Assembly: GCA_963719495.1 (NCBI GenBank)
Contig: CAVRCI010000005.1
Location: 64,001-128,000, forward strand
DNA length: 64,000 nucleotides
From: an uncultured Verrucomicrobiae bacterium
GTDB taxonomy: Bacteria > Verrucomicrobiota > Verrucomicrobiia > Chthoniobacterales > JAATET01
Reading direction: 5' to 3'
Below, in pieces: positions 6,476 to 18,236 of the stretch. Within the stretch, counting starts at the first letter, position 1. Each line of letters opens with the position of its first letter. A model generated the notes under the pieces. It ran no database searches and was not told the DNA's origin. It was given only the letters and a program-made list of their open reading frames with translations. A program made the position numbers and the translations under genes.

Positions 6476-8182
6476 ATGAAGCCAGCCACCAAGTCCAGCA
6501 AGCCCAGCCTCCGCCCGCATTCCTCCCTCGTCCTCGACGGCCCCGCCCGCGCCGCCAGCCGCGCCATGCTCTATCCCGCCGGCTTCACCCGAAAGGATTT
6601 CGCCAAACCCCAGATCGGCGTCGCTTCCACCTGGAGCATGGTCACCCCGTGCAACATGCACATCGACGCCCTCGCCCGCGAAGCCGCCCTCGGCATCGAC
6701 GCCGCCAAGGGCAAAGCCACCATCTTTAATACCATCACCATCTCCGACGGCATTTCGATGGGCACCGAAGGGATGAAATACTCCCTCGTCTCGCGCGAAG
6801 TCATCGCCGACTCCATCGAAACCGTCATGGGCTGCCAGAGCTACGACGGCCTCGTCGCCATCGGCGGCTGCGACAAAAACATGCCCGCCTGCCTCATCGC
6901 GATCGCCCGCCTGAATCGCCCGTCCGTTTTCGTCTACGGCGGCACCATCCTCCCCGGCTGCCTCAACGGCAAAAACCTCGACATCGTCTCCGTCTTCGAA
7001 GCCGTCGGCCAGCTCGCCGCCGGCAAGATCTCCCAGACCGAAGCCGACTCCATCGAGTCCTGCGCCATCCCCGGCCCCGGCTCCTGCGGCGGCATGTACA
7101 CCGCCAACACCATGGCCTCCGCCATCGAAGCCATGGGCATGTCCCTCCCCAACAGCTCCGCCCAGGCCGCCGTCTCCGAACACAAACGCGAGGACTGCCG
7201 TAACGCCGGAGCCGCCGTCATCGATCAGCTCAAACGCGGCATCCGCCCCTCCGACATCCTCACCAAGGAAGCCTTCGAAAACGCCATCACGGTCGTCATC
7301 GCCCTCGGCGGCAGCACCAACGCCGTCCTCCACCTCCTCGCCATCGCCCACAGCGCCAACGTCAAACTCGGCCTCGACGACTTCACCCGCATCGGACGCC
7401 GCGTCCCCGTCCTCGCCGACCTCAAGCCCTCCGGCAAATACCTCATGTCCGAGCTCATCGGCATCGGCGGCATCGTCCCGCTCCTGAAGGATCTCCTCGG
7501 CGCGGGCCTCCTCCACGGCGACTGCCTCACCGTCACCGGCAAGACGCTCGCCAAAAACCTCGCCCCGTTCAAGAGCTACCCCGAAGGCCAGAAGATCATC
7601 CTCCCGCTCGACGCCCCGATCAAGAAGGAAAGCCACCTCGTCGTCCTCCGCGGCAACCTCGCCCCCGAAGGCGCTGTCGCGAAGATCACCGGCAAGGAAG
7701 GCGAGAAATTCGAAGGCAAAGCCAAGGTCTTCGACGCCGAGGAAAAAGCCCTCACCGCCGTCCTCGAAGGCAAAATCAAAGCCGGCGACGTCATCGTCAT
7801 CCGCTACGAAGGCCCCCGCGGCGGCCCCGGCATGCGCGAAATGCTCTCCCCGACCAGCGCCGTCATGGGAGCCGGCCTCGGCACCTCCGTCGCCCTCATC
7901 ACCGACGGCCGCTTCTCCGGCGGCACCCACGGCTTCGTCGTCGGCCACATCACCCCCGAAGCCCACGAAGGCGGACCCCTCGCAATCGTCAAAAACGGCG
8001 ACCCCATCACCATCGACGCCGTCACCCACGAACTCACCCTCGGCGTCCCCGCCGCCGAGATCAAATCGCGCCTCGCCAAGTGGAAGCAACCAAAACCCCG
8101 CTACCGCCGCGGCGTCCTCGCCAAATACGCCCACACCGTCACGACCGCCAGCAAGGGAGCCGTCACCGACGCCAATCTATAG
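6476..8182 (+). CDS. ilvD: Dihydroxy-acid dehydratase
   Basis: [46 protein letters not shown]; start at MKPATK inside the longer ORF 4748..8182. Confidence 0.97.
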
Positions 8183-8404
8183 CCCTCCGCCTCGAGGAGC
8201 GGCGATTTGCAATCGCCGACCCACTCCCATCCGGCGGAGCCGGACACTTCAAATGCGTCGAGGGTCGAGTGACGAGCCTCGGCGTCACCCTTCCCTTCTT
8301 CGCGACCTTTGCGACCTTCTGTTCAAAGACGGTATTGTATTTCCTTCGTTCCCTTCATTCTCTTTTGTTCCGACTCAGGTCGTCAACTCACCGAGCCACA
8401 TCCC

Positions 8405-11400
8405 ATGCGCGAATACCCACTATCCCCGCTGCACCACCAGCAACTCGCCGCCTCCGGCCAGCCCGCCGGATCCGCTTTCCACACCCGCCAGCTCTCCTTC
8501 AGTTTCGGCGAGCGCATCGACCGCGACCGCCTCGTCGCCGCCTGGGGTGACCTGACAACCGCCCACCCCATCCTCCGCACCCGCCTCGACCCCGCCGGCC
8601 CCCGCTGGGTCGAGTCCGACGACGACATCACCGACTGGCAAGCCCTCGATTGGCAAACCGACGCCCCCACCGACCTTGGAGCCGCCTGGCAGGAACTCGT
8701 CACCACCGACGCCGCCCACCCCGTCACCACCGGACACCGCCTCACCACCATCCAACTCCCCAGCGGCGACCTCCACCTCCTCTGGTCCTACGACGACCTC
8801 CTCATCGACGAATCCGCCCTCGAAGTCCTCCTCGTCGAGTGGCTCCTCCGCTACGAAGGCGACACCTCCGACACCGCCCCCGACGACCCGGCCCCCGCCT
8901 TCGCCGCGCTCACCGAGCACGATTCCGAAGAAAAAACCTGGCGCTCCCATTTCCAAAACGTCCCCGCGATCCGCCCCCTCATCCTCCTCCCGCTCCCGCC
9001 CGAGTCCGCCCCCACCGCCCGGCGGACCACCGTCACCCACACCTTCGAGCGCGAACACGGACAAACCCTCACCGCCGCCGCGAAGACGATGACCGTCGAA
9101 CCCGTCGACCTCGTCAAAGCCGCCTGGATCTCCCTCCTTGGCCCCGCGCTGTCGTCGCACGAGATCATCCTCCTCGAATCCATCCGCCTCCCCCTCACCG
9201 CCATCGCCCGCGCCGAGGCCCGCGTCCCCCGCCGCCACCGCCTCGCCCCCGACGCCAAAGTCTCCGCCCTCGCCCAGGCCGTCGCGCAAACCCGCGCCGA
9301 ATCCACCGGCATCGGCACCTGGACCGCCGAACAAATCGCCAACGTCGTCTCCGGTGGAGCCGCCTCGACCCGCCCCGCCGCCGCCTTCCGCTACCGCCGC
9401 GGCACCCTCAACGACACCCTCCACGCCCGCCTCCCCCGCTGGCTCGGAGCCGACGCGCAATTTCTCAGCCACGACCCCGCCCCCTTCACCCTCATCTACA
9501 CCGCCTCCGACCGCGCCGAAGTCGCCCTCGACTTCGATCCCGGCCTCTTCAGCGAAGCCGCCGCCCGCCGCTTCCTCGAGCGCTGGGTCTCGCTGATTGG
9601 CCAGCTCATCGCCGACCCCGACCGCCCCCTCGCCGACCTGTCGATCCTCCTCCCCGACGAACCCACCCTCGTCGCCGGACCCGAAGCCGCCCCCCCCTTC
9701 CGCAGCCTCGTCCCCCAATGCCTCCACGATCTCTTCGCGGAGACCGCGAGTGACCTCGGCGACGCCGTCGCCCTCGAGACCGACGGCGGCCTCGTCACGT
9801 TCCAGACCCTCGACCAACAATCGAACCAGGTCGCCCGCGCCCTGCGCAAACTCGACGTCTCGCCGAAGTCAACCGTCGCCATCGAACCCGGCCCCTCCCA
9901 CCTCTGGCCCGCCGTCATGCTCGGAATCTGGAAAGCCGGAGCGACCATCGAACTCTCCGGCGGCAGCGAAGCCGCGCCGAAAAAGCAGTCGAAGGGCAAG
10001 AAATCCACGATCTCGATCGGCGAAAGCCAACCCAATTCCCCCGACGGCCACGCCCTCGCGAAGTTCTGGGATCAAGTCTCCGCCGAAAAACCCCGCCCCA
10101 TCCCCAGCGAACTCTCCGCCACCGACCCCGCGATCCGCACCGCCGACGGCCGCAAACTCACCCACGAAGAAGCCGGCCGTCTCAGCCAGGCCTCCGCCGC
10201 CGCCCTGCTCGTCGCGCCCGGCGACCGCACCCTGCAATCCGGAGCCCCGAGCGACCTCGATCCCATCGTCGAGCTCTTCGGCGTCCTCCTTTCCGGAGCC
10301 ACCGCCGTCCTCGCCGCCCCCGGCGGCTGGTCCACCCGCACCGCCTTTCAGGAGTTCGCCGACCAGCACAACGTCACTCTTCTCAGCATCCCGACCCCAT
10401 TCTGGAGTCAATGGACCCACTACCTCGCCGAGCTCTCGCTCCCCGCACCCGCGAGCGTCCGGCGCACCGTCATCCACGGCGGCCGCGTCGCTCCCGCCGC
10501 CCTCGCCGCGTGGCACGCCGCCGCCCCGACCGCGACCCTCCTCCACTCAGGCATCGGCTTCCACGGCCCCTCCTCCGAGATCGACCCCGGCGACGCCTTC
10601 GAGCCCGCCTCCCACCCCCCCGCCGGCAGCGTCGCCCGCATCACCTGGCAGGGCAAACCCCTCCCCCCCGGTTTCGCGGGCCAACTCGAAGTCGGAGCCT
10701 CCGAGGACACCCTCCTCGACTCGGGTCGCGAAGCTTTCCTCGACGACACCGGCACCTTCTACCCCCGCAACGAACTCGAAGCCACCCTCCGCCCCGGCAC
10801 CCCCACCTCCCGCCTCGAGACCATCGAGCGCGCCATCCTCGCCCACGCCGAGATCTTCGACTGCGTCCTCGCCCCCGGCGAAGCCGACGTCTGGAACGTC
10901 TGGATCGTCCCCGCCGACTCCCAACGCGGCGAACCCATGGATTTCCGCGACCACCTCGGCAAGCACGTCCCCGACCTCGAATTCGCCGTCGCCTGCATCC
11001 CACGACTTCCCCTCGACTCGGGCGGCCAACTCGATTCCTCGGCCCTGCCGAAACCCACCCGCGAAGCCGCCCCCACCCGCGCCGCCGATCCCGAAGAACC
11101 CCAAAAGCCCCGCGGCGAGGACGAAAAACTCCGCAGCATCCTCTCGCGCGCCCTCGGCGGACGCGCCATCCAGAACGACACCTCGATCTCCGACGGCTCC
11201 ACCAAACCCCACGTCGCCAAACACCTCCACGAAACCTGCGAGCGCACCGGCTACCCCATCGCCCGCCTCGCCGACTTCCAGCGCACCTTCACCGTCAAAT
11301 CCCTCCTTCGCGAATGGCGCGCCCGCAAGACCGCCGGAAAATGGGAACCCCTCACCGCCCTCCGCGCCGCCGGTTCGCTGCCACCACTCGTCTGCTTCCA

Positions 11401-12034
11401 CGATTTCGGCGGCGGCTCCGACCTCTACCGCGAGCTCACCCTCCAACTCGACCCCGAGCAACCCGTCTACGCCGTCACCGCCCGAGCCACCATCGAACCC
11501 GACGCCGCCCACAAAGACGTCCTCGAAATGGCCATCGCCTACGCCGAAGCCATCCGCGGCTTCGACGCCGAAGGCCCCCACTCTCTCGTCGGCTTCGGCT
11601 TCGGCGGCATCCTCGCCATCGAAACCGCCCGCCTCCTCCTCGAATCCGGTCGCGAGGTCGCCCTCATCGTCACCCTCGCCACCGAGCCACCCAAACCCGT
11701 TGGAGGACTCGCCACCACCTTCGCCAAGCTCCTCGGCCGCAAAAAAGACCCCGCCCCCCGCCCCGGCGACTCCCGCATCGCCACCGCCAACCGCCTGGCC
11801 GCCGCCCACCACCGCGTCGAACCCCTCGACGTCAAAATCCACGCCTTCCTGCCCGAACTCGATTTTCCCACGCTCGCCGACGTCCAGAAAGGCTGGGACG
11901 CCATCTCCGACGAAGTCCAAATCTACCAAGTCCCCTGCGCCCCCGCCGACCTCCTCGAAGAACCAGCCGTCACCGCAATAGCCGACGCCCTCACCAAACT
12001 AGCCGCCAACGAAGACCTAACGGACGAAGAGTAA
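8405..12034 (+). CDS. NRPS-like multidomain protein (condensation-adenylation-carrier-thioesterase order) with degenerate catalytic motifs
   Basis: YPLSP, HPILRT, LWSYDDLLIDE (C-like); CLHDLF, TFQTLDQQSNQVA, GIWKAGA, LPLDSGGQLD (A-like); PLVCFHDFGG, GPHSLVGFGFGG (TE-like). Confidence 0.8.
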   Translation: MREYPLSPLHHQQLAASGQPAGSAFHTRQLSFSFGERIDRDRLVAAWGDLTTAHPILRTRLDPAGPRWVESDDDITDWQALDWQTDAPTDLGAAWQELVTTDAAHPVTTGHRLTTIQLPSGDLHLLWSYDDLLIDESALEVLLVEWLLRYEGDTSDTAPDDPAPAFAALTEHDSEEKTWRSHFQNVPAIRPLILLPLPPESAPTARRTTVTHTFEREHGQTLTAAAKTMTVEPVDLVKAAWISLLGPALSSHEIILLESIRLPLTAIARAEARVPRRHRLAPDAKVSALAQAVAQTRAESTGIGTWTAEQIANVVSGGAASTRPAAAFRYRRGTLNDTLHARLPRWLGADAQFLSHDPAPFTLIYTASDRAEVALDFDPGLFSEAAARRFLERWVSLIGQLIADPDRPLADLSILLPDEPTLVAGPEAAPPFRSLVPQCLHDLFAETASDLGDAVALETDGGLVTFQTLDQQSNQVARALRKLDVSPKSTVAIEPGPSHLWPAVMLGIWKAGATIELSGGSEAAPKKQSKGKKSTISIGESQPNSPDGHALAKFWDQVSAEKPRPIPSELSATDPAIRTADGRKLTHEEAGRLSQASAAALLVAPGDRTLQSGAPSDLDPIVELFGVLLSGATAVLAAPGGWSTRTAFQEFADQHNVTLLSIPTPFWSQWTHYLAELSLPAPASVRRTVIHGGRVAPAALAAWHAAAPTATLLHSGIGFHGPSSEIDPGDAFEPASHPPAGSVARITWQGKPLPPGFAGQLEVGASEDTLLDSGREAFLDDTGTFYPRNELEATLRPGTPTSRLETIERAILAHAEIFDCVLAPGEADVWNVWIVPADSQRGEPMDFRDHLGKHVPDLEFAVACIPRLPLDSGGQLDSSALPKPTREAAPTRAADPEEPQKPRGEDEKLRSILSRALGGRAIQNDTSISDGSTKPHVAKHLHETCERTGYPIARLADFQRTFTVKSLLREWRARKTAGKWEPLTALRAAGSLPPLVCFHDFGGGSDLYRELTLQLDPEQPVYAVTARATIEPDAAHKDVLEMAIAYAEAIRGFDAEGPHSLVGFGFGGILAIETARLLLESGREVALIVTLATEPPKPVGGLATTFAKLLGRKKDPAPRPGDSRIATANRLAAAHHRVEPLDVKIHAFLPELDFPTLADVQKGWDAISDEVQIYQVPCAPADLLEEPAVTAIADALTKLAANEDLTDEE

Positions 12035-12106: not shown

Positions 12107-12946
12107 TCACCTCATCCCACGAACCAACCACCCCAAACTCCCCAGCACCACCCCCCGCAACCGCCGCCGCGAGATCTTCACCACCCCCGCCGAGTCCACC
12201 CGCAACTCCGGTGCCATCGCCAACCCAATCCGAGCCGGCAGCACGCAAGCCAGTCGCATCCGCCGACGGTCCACGCGCCGGGCCCACTCCAGCCCGGCCT
12301 CCAGCCCCATCCGAGCCTCGTCCTTCACCCGATCGAAATCCGCGTCCACCACGTAAACCCGCCCGATCTCCCGATCCGCCGCCCGGTCCCGCAGAATATT
12401 CACCCGCTGCAACCCTTTCCCGTAATCCACCCCCAGCCGCACCATCTCCCCCCGATCCGCTTGGGAAAACCCCGGCACCCGATCAAAACTCAACTCCGTC
12501 CAAAACTCCCCCACGCACCCCGCGACGAGATAAGTGTATCCGTCCAACTCCTCCGCCCCAAGGTCACCGCCGCTACCCCCAAACCGCTCCAAATCAAAAA
12601 TCTGACCCCGCAAAATCCGAGCCCACACCCACTCCAGCCGCCCCCGGTCCGGCGAGTCCCGCAACCGCTCGATCAACCCCGGCAGCGCTGTCACCAACTC
12701 GGCCTCCGCCGCCACCTCCTGCCGACCCGCCATCGCCGCCACCACCCCGGCCCCAATCCCAAATCCCTCCAACTCCCGCAAAGCCCCAACCCGCCGACCC
12801 ACCTCCGCCCCGGAAGAGTCCGCGATACTGTCGGAAGCCCGCGCCAGCAAATACCCCAGCGCCACCGTCTCCCGAATCTCCCCAGGCAACCACCGAATCG
12901 TCATCGCAAACGACCGAGCCACCCGCCCCAAAAGCGCCCAATCCAT
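12107..12946 (-). CDS. Squalene/phytoene synthase family protein
   Basis: VARSFAMTIRWLP, YLLARASDSIAD, YTYLVAGCVGEFWT, GKGLQRVNILRD. Confidence 0.88.
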   Translation of the reverse strand: MDWALLGRVARSFAMTIRWLPGEIRETVALGYLLARASDSIADSSGAEVGRRVGALRELEGFGIGAGVVAAMAGRQEVAAEAELVTALPGLIERLRDSPDRGRLEWVWARILRGQIFDLERFGGSGGDLGAEELDGYTYLVAGCVGEFWTELSFDRVPGFSQADRGEMVRLGVDYGKGLQRVNILRDRAADREIGRVYVVDADFDRVKDEARMGLEAGLEWARRVDRRRMRLACVLPARIGLAMAPELRVDSAGVVKISRRRLRGVVLGSLGWLVRGMR

Positions 12947-12965
12947 CAAGCGAACCCCTCACCCC

Positions 12966-12998
12966 AATCCGCAATCCGCAATCCGCAATCCGCAATCC
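12966..12998. repeat. Heptamer tandem repeat (AATCCGC)x4+
   Basis: aatccgcaatccgcaatccgcaatccgcaatcc between two minus-strand genes. Confidence 0.95.
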
Positions 12999-14048
12999 TC
13001 ACAGTCCCACCCGCACTTGCTCGATCTCATCGGCATAAAACCGACCCAGCCCCATCGCCGCCGCGCTCTCAACGTGCCCCGCCCGCAGCCCGATCGACGG
13101 CAGTTTATTGCTCGTCTTGTATTCCTCCAGCAACCGAATCGCCACCGCGTCCAGCGCCACCGGATCCGCGCTCGCGAACAGCGTATAATAGGGCCGCACA
13201 AAATTCGGATTCGGCAAAGGCCCACCCGCAAACTGCAAAGTCAGCCCGTCCATCAAGGTAAACACCACCTTCCCGCGAATCATCGGATCCGAGTAAATCT
13301 CCGCCAGATACGGGTCTCCAAACGTCGGCGGTTTGATGAAACGCCGCCAATTGTCGACGTTCCAAAGCGTCATGTTCGCGATCGCCCCGTTGATCCCCGT
13401 CATGAAGCTGTCGCACAGCGAAGGCACGTTGATCACCTTCGTCACCTCCTGGCTAAGGACTTTCGCAAAGTAACTCGTGCTACTCAGCTGATCCCCGTTC
13501 GAGAGCACGTCCTCGAGCCGAGTCCCCTCCCGCACCCCGAACTTGCTGTCCCCCCAGATCAGCCGCCCCAGCACCGGAGCCGTCAGCAACGCCTTCGGAT
13601 CATACCCCGACGTCGGGTCCGTCCAGCGCAACTGGTAGTCCGGCGAATCCTTCGAAAACCCCGCCTTGATGAGATCCTCCTCGTTCCGATCCCAGACGAG
13701 AATCTTCGAAGCCGGCACCCCCGCCGACTGCAACCCCCGCGAAATCGCCCGCACCACCGCCACGTGCGTCCCGCTCACGTCCCCCGGAGCCGCCGCCACC
13801 TTGATCCCCACCACGTCCTCCGGCCCCGCCAGCGACCGCCAGGCCTCCGCCGCCGAACGTTTCCGAGTCACCGCCGCCACCAGCGAATCCACCATCCGCC
13901 CCACCACCGCCTCGTCCGCCCGAAACCCCGTCACCAACGACTTCGGGTCCATCGCGAAATAAACCGTCGATCGCTCGGCCACCGCTTGCGCAAATGTCCC
14001 GCCCGCGCCCGCGAGCAGACACACCATCGCCATTCCGATCCCCCTCAC
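12999..14048 (-). CDS. DUF362 domain-containing exported protein
   Basis: DVVGIKV, KVINVPSL, FASADPVALDAVA; GTG start overlaps the upstream stop (GTGA); signal-peptide-like N-terminus. Confidence 0.75.
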   Translation of the reverse strand: MRGIGMAMVCLLAGAGGTFAQAVAERSTVYFAMDPKSLVTGFRADEAVVGRMVDSLVAAVTRKRSAAEAWRSLAGPEDVVGIKVAAAPGDVSGTHVAVVRAISRGLQSAGVPASKILVWDRNEEDLIKAGFSKDSPDYQLRWTDPTSGYDPKALLTAPVLGRLIWGDSKFGVREGTRLEDVLSNGDQLSSTSYFAKVLSQEVTKVINVPSLCDSFMTGINGAIANMTLWNVDNWRRFIKPPTFGDPYLAEIYSDPMIRGKVVFTLMDGLTLQFAGGPLPNPNFVRPYYTLFASADPVALDAVAIRLLEEYKTSNKLPSIGLRAGHVESAAAMGLGRFYADEIEQVRVGL

Positions 14049-15693: not shown

Positions 15694-16794
15694 GTGACCA
15701 CCCCTATCTCCCACCTCTACGTTCACATCCCCTTCTGCCCGAAGGTCTGCCCGTATTGCAGCTTCTACAAGGAGGCCAGCGACCGCAACCGCACCCGCGC
15801 CTTTCTCGACGCCGTCCTCCTCGAAGCGGAAAAACACGCCGCCACCCTGCGCCCCACCACCATCTTCTTCGGCGGAGGCACCCCCAGCGCCCTCAGCACC
15901 AGCCAGCTCGACCTCCTCCTCACCGGCCTCCACGACCGCCTCGACCTCACCGCCGTCACCGAGTGGACGCTCGAAATGAACCCCGCCACCGTCAGCCTCG
16001 AAAAGGCCCGCGCCCTCCGCGACCTCGGCGTGAACCGCATCAGCATGGGCGTCCAGTCCTGGGACGACACCCTCCTCCACACCCTCGGTCGCGTCCATTC
16101 CGCCGCCCAGGCCGAGCGCTCCTACCACCTCCTCCGCGAAGCCGGCTTCACCAACGTCAACCTCGACCTCATCTTCGGCGTCCCCGGCCAGACCCGCGAC
16201 CAGTGGGCCACCTCCCTCGACCGCACCATCGCCCTCGCCCCCGACCACATCTCCGCCTACTGCCTCACCTACGAAGAAGACACCGACTACTTCCTCCGCC
16301 TCCAGCGCGGCGAACTCATCCCCGACAACGAACTCGACGCCGACCTCTTCGAACTCACCATGGACCGCCTCGGCCCCGCCGACTACGAGCAATACGAAAT
16401 CTCGAACTACGCCCGCCCCGGCCGAGCCTGCCGCCACAACCTCGCCTACTGGCAATCCGCCGACTACCTCGGCCTCGGCCCCAGCGCCTTCTCGACCGTC
16501 GGCGACCAGCGCTGGAAAAACGTCAGCTCCACCGAAGACTACGTCCAAAAAATCAACGCCCACCTAGACCCCGCCGACTTCCGCGAACCCGCCCCGCCGA
16601 CCCTTCGAGCTGCCGAACGCCTCGCCTTCGCCCTCCGAACCTCCACCGGAATCCCCGCCGAAGACCTCGCCGCCTTCCCGACTGAACTCAACCGCCTCCA
16701 AACCGCCGGCTACTTGGAACCCATCGAGCAAAACTACCGCCTCACCCGCCAAGGCCGAATGCTAGCCGACGAAATCGCCGAAGCCTTCATTTGA
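15694..16794 (+). CDS. hemW: Radical SAM heme chaperone HemW (HemN-like)
   Basis: LYVHIPFCPKVCPYCSF, FFGGGTPS, NRISMGVQS, YEISNYA, HNLAYW. Confidence 0.93.
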   Translation: MTTPISHLYVHIPFCPKVCPYCSFYKEASDRNRTRAFLDAVLLEAEKHAATLRPTTIFFGGGTPSALSTSQLDLLLTGLHDRLDLTAVTEWTLEMNPATVSLEKARALRDLGVNRISMGVQSWDDTLLHTLGRVHSAAQAERSYHLLREAGFTNVNLDLIFGVPGQTRDQWATSLDRTIALAPDHISAYCLTYEEDTDYFLRLQRGELIPDNELDADLFELTMDRLGPADYEQYEISNYARPGRACRHNLAYWQSADYLGLGPSAFSTVGDQRWKNVSSTEDYVQKINAHLDPADFREPAPPTLRAAERLAFALRTSTGIPAEDLAAFPTELNRLQTAGYLEPIEQNYRLTRQGRMLADEIAEAFI

Positions 16795-17052
16795 GCGGGG
16801 GAGCGCACGCGTCCCCGCGTGCGAGCCGCGGCGTCCCGCCGCGGCAACCCGGCAAATCGAGCAAAGCGAGAGAGCCGAAGAACTCAAGGAGCGGCGATTT
16901 TCAATCGCCGAACCAACCAAATTCCGCGAAGCGGAACAAAAATCCCCCCGGCAACCCGCGCCAGCGGGAGCCGACCGCATCCCCCTTCCGTATCCTTCGC
17001 GACCTTTGCGACCTTCTGTTCAAAACCCGTATTCGAATTCCGCAAGAGTGTT

Positions 17053-17140
17053 GACTCGCGCTCTCCCGAGCGTCTCGCCCTTCGGGCTGCATCGCAGAGC
17101 CGATGCAGTCTGCCCCGAGCCTTCCCAGCCTCCGGTGCTC
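17053..17140. repeat. About 88-bp structured repeat family C; other copies 28119-28206, 62517-62580 (partial), 62588-62675
   Basis: Shared tctcgcccttcggg...gcagagc...ctgcccc.agccttccc....tccggtgctc. Confidence 0.88.
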
Positions 17141-17162
17141 TGTTCAAACGTATAAAACCCAA

Positions 17163-18236
17163 GTGACCCACGACATCCTCATCATCGGAGCCGGCCCCGC
17201 CGGCTCCGTCGCCGCCGCGCACCTCGCCCGCGCCAACCGCCGCGTCCTCGTCATCGAGAAGTCCACCTTCCCCCGCCACAAAGTCTGCGGCGACTGCCTC
17301 AACCCCGTCGCCTGGCCCATTCTCGAGCGCCTCGATCTCGCCGACCGCATCCTCACCCTCCCCCACGCCCAGGCCGACACCGTCGAATTCCTCGGAGCCC
17401 ACGGCCAGCGAGTCACCATTCCCGCCCCCGCCCACTCGCCCGCCACCGGTGAACTCATGGTCACCCGCCGCGACCTCGACGCCCTCCTCATCGCTCGCGC
17501 AACCGAGCTCGGCGCCGAATTCCGCGACAACCTCCCCGTCACCCGCATCGAGCGCACCGGCGGCCACTGGACCCTCCACACCCCCACCGGCCCACTCACC
17601 GCCCCCATCGTCCTCGCCGCCGACGGCCGCAACTCCACCACCGCCCGCCAGACCAACCGCCTCGGCCGACCCCGCCACGACCGCGTCGCCATCCAAACCC
17701 ACGCTCCCCTCGCCGACGACCTCGGCAACACCGTCCGCATGATCTTCCACGCCGACGGCTACGGCGGCCTCGCCCGCGTCGACGCCACCACCATGAACGT
17801 CTGCCTCGTCGCCCGCACCAAGCGCCTCCCCGCCCTCCGCGCCTACGCCGAACGCACCTTCGATCTCCCCGTCGACACCGACTGGCGCTCCATCACCCCG
17901 CTCACCCGCGCCGATTCCTCACCCGTCGCCGCCGACGGCCTCTTCCTCCTCGGCGACGCCGCCCGCGTCGTCGAACCCTTCACCGGCGAAGGCATCACCT
18001 ACGCCCTGCGCTCCGGCGAACTCGCCGCCGACGCCATCGCCAATCACCCCCTCCCCGCCGCCGAGACCACCTACCGCCGCACCCACGCCGCCACGTATCG
18101 CGGCCGCCTCTGGGTCAACCGCCTCGCGCGCCAGGCCAGCCTCCACCCCCTCGCCACCTCACGTCTCCTCAGCCTCCTCAAACTCTACCCAGCCCCCCTG
18201 GCCCTCCTAACCAAAAAAGTCGTCCGCCCCACTTGA
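17163..18236 (+). CDS. FAD-dependent oxidoreductase, geranylgeranyl reductase-like
   Basis: DILIIGAGPAGS, FPRHKVCGD, AADGRNS, LGDAARVVEPFTGEGI; GTG start. Confidence 0.88.
   Translation: MTHDILIIGAGPAGSVAAAHLARANRRVLVIEKSTFPRHKVCGDCLNPVAWPILERLDLADRILTLPHAQADTVEFLGAHGQRVTIPAPAHSPATGELMVTRRDLDALLIARATELGAEFRDNLPVTRIERTGGHWTLHTPTGPLTAPIVLAADGRNSTTARQTNRLGRPRHDRVAIQTHAPLADDLGNTVRMIFHADGYGGLARVDATTMNVCLVARTKRLPALRAYAERTFDLPVDTDWRSITPLTRADSSPVAADGLFLLGDAARVVEPFTGEGITYALRSGELAADAIANHPLPAAETTYRRTHAATYRGRLWVNRLARQASLHPLATSRLLSLLKLYPAPLALLTKKVVRPT

Follow-up and report, generated by a model that had tools for sequence, protein, structure and literature searches.

The DNA described here, referred to as the window, is a stretch of 64,000 nucleotides from an uncultured Verrucomicrobiae bacterium of the order Chthoniobacterales (contig CAVRCI010000005.1, positions 64,001 to 128,000). 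It holds, directly downstream of ilvD, the gene for dihydroxy-acid dehydratase (IlvD), a gene whose product shows the domain order and folds of a complete single-module nonribosomal peptide synthetase (NRPS), namely condensation, adenylation, carrier and thioesterase (C-A-T-TE), from which the catalytic residues are missing. This protein, called pseudo-NRPS in what follows, is a real and conserved feature, undescribed as far as has been searched. An original prediction made from the DNA alone had presented it as an intact frame of 1210 amino acids; the frame from 8405 to 12034 on the forward strand is indeed unbroken, and its translation amounts to 1209 residues plus the stop codon. The codon usage is host-like, as had been stated (GC content at third codon positions, 0.86 versus 0.88 for ilvD), and no NRPS or polyketide synthase (PKS) cluster has been found nearby, in agreement with the claim that no biosynthetic cluster surrounds the gene. 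That first reading of the surroundings overlooked ilvD upstream, as well as a squalene/phytoene-synthase-family gene that converges on the 3' end.

A profile scan with Pfam matched Condensation (residues 3-247), AMP-binding and Thioesterase, all three fitting the layout that had been proposed, and left PP-binding, the carrier model, unmatched in the protein. The NCBIfam NRPS models all scored far under their own cut-offs. Modelled by AlphaFold, a homologue with 75% identity (mean predicted local distance difference test score, pLDDT, of 83) aligns over its full length to the four-domain NRPS structures of AB3403, ObiF1, SrfA-C and EntF. The C domain of the window protein itself, predicted by AlphaFold2 (AF2) with a pLDDT of 92.8, superposes on that of SrfA-C with a Z score of 35.9 and a root-mean-square deviation of 3.5 over 400 aligned residues, and its nearest C domains by sequence are McyB C1, PvdL C3 and SrfA-C C. 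The C-A-T-TE order and folds are therefore present, with the carrier-like segment restricted to the family f1; by the tests of membership applied, the pseudo-NRPS is nevertheless not an NRPS. Coordinates of the features are collected in Table 1.

Table 1. Features of the pseudo-NRPS locus and of the active relatives discussed in the text (window positions unless a locus is named).
Feature	Position	Strand	Basis or remark
ilvD, dihydroxy-acid dehydratase, upstream, 222 nt gap	6476..8182	+	TIGR00110, 749 bits, above cut-off
Pseudo-NRPS gene (1209 aa), C-A-T-TE fold devoid of catalytic residues	8405..12034	+	Translation, Pfam, alignment, model
Condensation-fold domain, residues 1-415, most family invariants	8405..9649	+	AF2; 20 columns at >=90%
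Ser31, Ser33, Gly35 (motif SxSFG), strand 27-33	8495..8509	+	100%, 88% and 100% of 49 members
His124, strand 123-130, invariant; Arg/Lys in active relatives	8774..8776	+	Alignment
Degenerate HHxxxDG (DDLLIDE); sole motif residue kept is structural Asp135	8792..8812	+	Translation, alignment
Asp350, strand 350-354 (inferred latch strand), invariant	9452..9454	+	Alignment, model
Adenylation-fold domain without P-loop, A4 Asp, YGPTE, TGD or A10 Lys	9707..11059	+	Pattern and column check
Carrier-like helical segment, Lys934 in Ser column, f1 only	11117..11338	+	Alignment, model
Thioesterase-fold domain, Gly for nucleophile, no His	11339..12019	+	Pfam, alignment
Squalene/phytoene-synthase-family and DUF362 genes converging on pseudo-NRPS	12107-14045	-
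hemW and geranylgeranyl-reductase-like gene, beyond the former two	15694-18236	+
Sister-group members P0207, P0250, P0258, P0272, P0273			Uncharacterised, C-A-T-TE layout
Canonical single-module C-A-T-TE NRPS of G829, Cys thioesterase	L189:5665-9585	-

The loss of catalytic motifs was followed across the family in 54 loci out of 74 carriers, 49 of which were aligned once a split locus (L050) and four partial ones had been dropped. All the degenerate motifs listed in the original prediction were confirmed where it had placed them, and alignment to canonical NRPSs restores none of them. In the window protein the condensation motif HHxxxDG reads DDLLIDE (residues 130-136), the region of the adenylation fold that should hold the P-loop (10124-10165) has lost this motif, the A10 Lys column is occupied by Gln875 (11027-11029), and the thioesterase GxSxG reads GFGFG (11591-11605), with no His near VPCAPADLL or elsewhere in the aligned region. 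The carrier lacks a clear GGxS, the Ser column being Lys934; a neighbouring Ser932 occurs in only three of the 15 members that keep the segment.

The rest of the family is equally non-canonical. The second catalytic His of the C domain is found in one of the 49 members (L040), versus 366 of 384 canonical C domains. The patterns of the P-loop, YGPTE, TGD and A10 are matched by none of the 54 loci; the amine-binding A4 Asp is absent from all 49 aligned members, and the A10 Lys is retained by one (L035). At the position of the carrier Ser, 34 members have a gap, 13 have Lys, two have Arg and none has Ser; the whole segment is deleted in those 34 and retained in f1 only. The thioesterase nucleophile is replaced by Gly in 46 and is Ser in one (L114). 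Each catalytic residue is thus present in at most one of the 49 members, and no protein holds two together. In f1, an LGGR...DGxTKP pattern is conserved in the dead carrier segment (11111-11216 in the window) despite the replacement of Ser by Lys or Arg.

The distribution of the family is confined and regular. A protein search retrieved 16 relatives with 35-75% identity, after which scores fall by about 550 bits to ordinary NRPSs. A profile search of 50% representatives was dominated by multi-module NRPSs and yielded no distribution, and an ESM Atlas search returned ordinary NRPS clusters and unnamed ones. A C-domain profile searched against 301 genomes of the order separates the matches cleanly: 71 of the 78 genomes of six families hold one match each, of 264-490 bits (f1 14/14, including the genome G000 and with one count that depends on the unpublished genome G016; f2 1/2; f4 3/3; f9 47/53; f10 4/4; f11 2/2), and the 223 genomes that belong to ten other families contain no match above 200 bits. 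Outside the order, no family-level score was obtained in 401 genomes of the phylum and 301 of the class, with the exception of G829. Members are down to 18-25% identical, and the close ones are recorded under Chthoniobacterales, Terrimicrobiaceae, Spartobacteria and unplaced Verrucomicrobiae assemblies, with database names that are domain labels only. Very small genomes retain mostly needed genes; the two single-contig genomes of 0.9 Mb (G025 and G039) keep the gene at full length, and ilvD too. Across six families of Chthoniobacterales, the complete but dead module is kept in the manner of a housekeeping gene, and it is apparently vertically inherited.

In a FastTree phylogeny, rooted with a locus from the unpublished genome G558 (L137), the family is monophyletic (support 1.0, stem 0.78). 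Its sister group (support 0.91) consists of single-module NRPSs with largely canonical motifs, predicted from sequence to be active, in which the thioesterase nucleophile position is Cys. One of these genes, in locus L189, comes from G829, a genome of another order and the only match among 34 genomes of its family. It lies among genes for GT4 glycosyltransferases and a sugar transferase; the 12 kb read there contains no ilvD, and the product possibly decorates a polysaccharide. Four proteins of about 1320 residues (P0250, P0258, P0272 and P0273) are similar to it.

The most stable neighbour of the pseudo-NRPS gene is ilvD, which is single-copy in G000. In 49 of the 53 testable loci (L129 ends too early to be counted) it immediately precedes the pseudo-NRPS gene on the same strand, and the four exceptions are all the f10 members. 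The intervening gap is estimated at -7 to 281 nt and does not exceed 50 nt in 34 of the 49; in four loci of genus g1 it measures 204-222 nt, the window gap being 8183-8404. A scan for promoters and terminators gave results near chance (8 terminator-like sites versus 5.4 +/- 2.1), with one weak hairpin in the ilvD gap at 8300-8314. The flanking genes, in contrast, hold their place in only 37-45% of loci: the same-strand gene upstream of ilvD in 20/44, the convergent squalene/phytoene-synthase gene in 17/46 and hemW in 10/25. All these adjacency counts come from related, non-independent genomes. In L035 (13105-13878), panB lies just upstream of ilvD. Among the unlinked loci, two (L033:10691-13196 and L034:4835-7331) adjoin branched-chain-type ABC-transporter genes, and a third (L032:3403-6046) is near a LeuA/CimA-type synthase gene and an SBF symporter gene.

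Genomes without the family were also inspected. Among 32 queried, 26 hold an ilvD match, and in none of the 25 ilvD loci read does the family lie downstream. Six genomes, two of f14 and four of f15 (G029, G043, G030, G044, G056 and G667; 97-100% complete), gave no ilvD match at an E value of 1e-50 with this query, and branched-chain amino acid auxotrophy is possible in them. The IlvD proteins of carriers, f10 included, cluster together in the IlvD tree, one node of which is weakly supported.

Conservation specific to the family falls mostly in the C domain. A position was considered fixed on the stem if 85% or more of the family members share its residue and no more than one of the six closest active relatives has it. 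There are 12 such positions (S31, S33, G35, I116, H124, R216, D337, R345, D350, G716, G1065 and P1096), of which the C domain holds nine. Ser31, His124 and Asp350 are invariant in 49/49, at columns where the six closest active relatives have A/V/I/E, R/K and R/K/Q/E, respectively; His occupies the 124 column in 5% of the 384 canonical C domains, and the combination of the three residues occurs in two. Strands 27-33, 123-130 and 350-354 are presumably neighbours in one sheet, following the C-domain topology as we take it to be. Judging from the strand register and this topology, the three residues would stand on adjacent strands with their side chains on one face. Passages of PMC10510592 describe the latch of C domains as adding strands to the end of the sheet of the N-terminal lobe. 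Trp95, Pro119 and Pro344-Trp346 were rejected as new residues of the family, being common to the active sister group. The sensing of amino or keto acids in the adenylation pocket was also set aside, given that the pocket Asp (0/49) and Lys (1/49) are not retained; the ligand sensor offered in the original prediction is thus weak when taken as an amino-acid sensor of this kind.

According to these data, several explanations for the retention of a dead module can be weighed. There is almost no probability that the gene is an NRPS in decay, heading for pseudogene status. The lineage of the window does have the highest ratio of nonsynonymous to synonymous substitution rates (dN/dS) of the family, 0.37-0.41 (0.28-0.35 in the C domain and 0.47-0.55 in the carrier segment), and the G004 member (L050:7086-10695) is split into two overlapping frames. 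However, frames are open and new invariants are shared over six families, and dN/dS by the Nei-Gojobori method is far below 1 in all 14 pairs (0.07-0.41; 0.01-0.19 for ilvD in 12 pairs). The splits in G004 suggest assembly indels, because a nearby histidine kinase gene is also apparently split. The gene is thus maintained and not decaying, as had been proposed: its orthologs are as non-canonical as it is and evolve under constraint, so neither restored catalytic residues nor canonical orthologs with a dN/dS near 1 have been found. It is also very improbable that the protein acts in trans as a partner or decoy of an active NRPS, a role that the original prediction had placed among its options. 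Even though the entire NRPS fold is retained and some carriers have other NRPS-like matches, neither G000 (98.6% complete) nor any of the five other carriers tested (G010, G019, G025, G038 and G039) has a Condensation match besides the pseudo-NRPS. None of the adenylation domains of G000 passes the TIGR01733 cut-off, and the other adenylation and carrier loci inspected in it resemble an acyl-CoA synthetase, an Aas-like protein and a type I PKS; the PKS-like gene (L188:15-5687, on contig C8) is followed by signalling genes with receiver domains. As no other NRPS was found in G000, such a partner is unlikely there, and retention in genomes free of NRPSs largely refutes the idea; G629, conversely, has 16 C-domain matches, yet lacks the family.

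More weight falls on what the protein may do next to ilvD. That an NRPS module has been rebuilt as a partner of core branched-chain synthesis, either as a regulator or protector of IlvD or through a new Ser-His-Asp site on the condensation fold, has in our judgement close to an even chance of being right. In its first form, which we tentatively prefer at rather less than an even chance, the protein would assist the IlvD step as a non-catalytic accessory factor, acting via the remodelled C-domain site, and a scaffold or binding protein, as the original prediction had already suggested, is the leading idea that can be drawn from sequence. Motif loss, purifying selection, distribution, gene link, ancestry and fixed residues are the computed basis of this proposal. 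The common ancestor of six Chthoniobacterales families would have acquired an active single-module C-A-T-TE NRPS immediately after ilvD; the module would then have been stripped of all the chemistry of an assembly line, and most lineages would have dropped the carrier domain as well. It may have been retained on account of a new site gained by the N-terminal lobe of its C domain (Ser31/Ser33/Gly35, His124 and Asp350), beside the inherited Trp83, Trp95 and Trp346. Presumably co-transcribed and made together with IlvD, the protein might bind this enzyme or a metabolite of the pathway via the new site, with the putative effect of tuning or protecting the enzyme, much as an inactive X-domain recruits P450s. 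We know of no regulatory subunit for the dihydroxy-acid dehydratase step.

Several observations weigh against a function at IlvD. All four f10 genomes carry the gene unlinked from ilvD, which lies elsewhere in them; in four genomes of one genus (G629, G639, G648 and G672) ilvD is intact and directly followed by the synthase gene, with no family-level match in these or in G621, and G017 (91% complete) also lacks the family. Since the gene was lost with ilvD intact in that genus, the pseudo-NRPS is not an obligate subunit of IlvD. Moreover, IlvD occurs without such a neighbour in 23 genomes of eight non-carrier families, and the gene block around the pseudo-NRPS is ancestral in the clade, so that adjacency is partly a matter of inheritance among related genomes. 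Residues typical of carrier IlvDs (P12, P32, T80 and Q119, numbered from position 6482) were considered as evidence of co-evolution and rejected: they track phylogeny, being for the most part still found in genomes from which the gene has gone. IlvH, the usual feedback subunit, is present in all five genomes tested for it (four carriers and one non-carrier), which ruled out that the pseudo-NRPS replaces it. The predicted complex of IlvD with the C domain scored 0.00, with controls that did not fold, and gives evidence neither way. The separate linkage in f10, the losses with ilvD intact in at least four genomes, the ancestral block and the active relative L189 among sugar-transferase genes would all suit a domesticated non-catalytic protein unrelated to IlvD, for instance a scaffold or binding protein in envelope or lipid metabolism that uses the ilvD transcript for expression only. 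We regard this as somewhat unlikely, because the ilvD link (49/53) is about twice as stable as that of the same-strand gene upstream of ilvD (20/44); more anecdotally, the unlinked copies in L033, L034 and L032 have the branched-chain-type or LeuA/CimA-type neighbours mentioned above. The accessory role also competes with a new enzyme, in which Ser31 or Ser33, His124 and Asp350, away from the old HHxxxDG, would form a Ser-His-Asp site for acyl hydrolysis or transfer on a metabolite of the IlvD step. Invariance at 18-25% identity, the difference from the six closest active relatives, the rarity of the combination and the supposed neighbourhood of the three strands speak in its favour. However, this neighbourhood comes from strand register and not from model coordinates, a polar network or binding surface would show the same conservation, and the retained adenylation and thioesterase folds would be left unexplained, so that such an enzyme seems doubtful.

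Compared with known systems, the pseudo-NRPS is like the single-module NRPSs AB3403 (4zxh), SrfA-C (2vsq), EntF (5ja1) and ObiF1 (6n8e) in domain order, length and predicted fold. In contrast to them, it lacks the catalytic His, the P-loop, both the A4 Asp and the A10 Lys, the carrier Ser and the thioesterase nucleophile, its carrier is deleted in most members, and it stands in single copy behind ilvD with no NRPS cluster. In the X-domain of glycopeptide NRPSs, a condensation fold without catalytic activity has been put to use in recruiting other enzymes, the P450s, as passages of PMC10510592 describe. The likeness to it (Tcp12, 4tx2) extends to the inactive fold and to a sequence match of 92 bits. 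However, the X-domain is one dead domain within an active assembly line, downstream of a carrier domain, where it recruits P450s to the carrier-bound peptide, whereas the pseudo-NRPS is a whole stand-alone module that is dead, with an N-terminal C domain nearest to the McyB-C1/SrfA-C kind and no assembly line. It looks like the principle of the X-domain carried over to an entire stand-alone module with ties to primary metabolism. NRPS domains outside secondary metabolism include fungal Lys2, Ebony, DltA and the carboxylic acid reductases, all of which keep adenylation and a phosphopantetheinylated carrier; the pseudo-NRPS family, in contrast, is predicted to have neither function. No description of the family or of an ilvD-NRPS pair was found in the full-text literature covered, which leaves out subscription journals. 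The main text of PMC4607532 and PMC7857533 contains no mention of NRPS, peptide synthetase, thioesterase or ilvD, and their supplementary gene lists may annotate such a gene.

The usual view holds NRPS domains to be bound to their clusters, and dead ones to be debris or helpers of an assembly line. The family described here suggests that an enzyme of secondary metabolism has been turned to an undescribed housekeeping job, and genome-mining counts may score it as an NRPS in these bacteria. Three point mutants, compared with the active sister group, make both ideas about its role directly testable. If the link to ilvD is functional, the protein would add a layer to branched-chain amino acid synthesis, and if the Ser-His-Asp set is catalytic, an old fold would have acquired a new active site; the finding would be categorically new if a role with IlvD or a new active site were shown.

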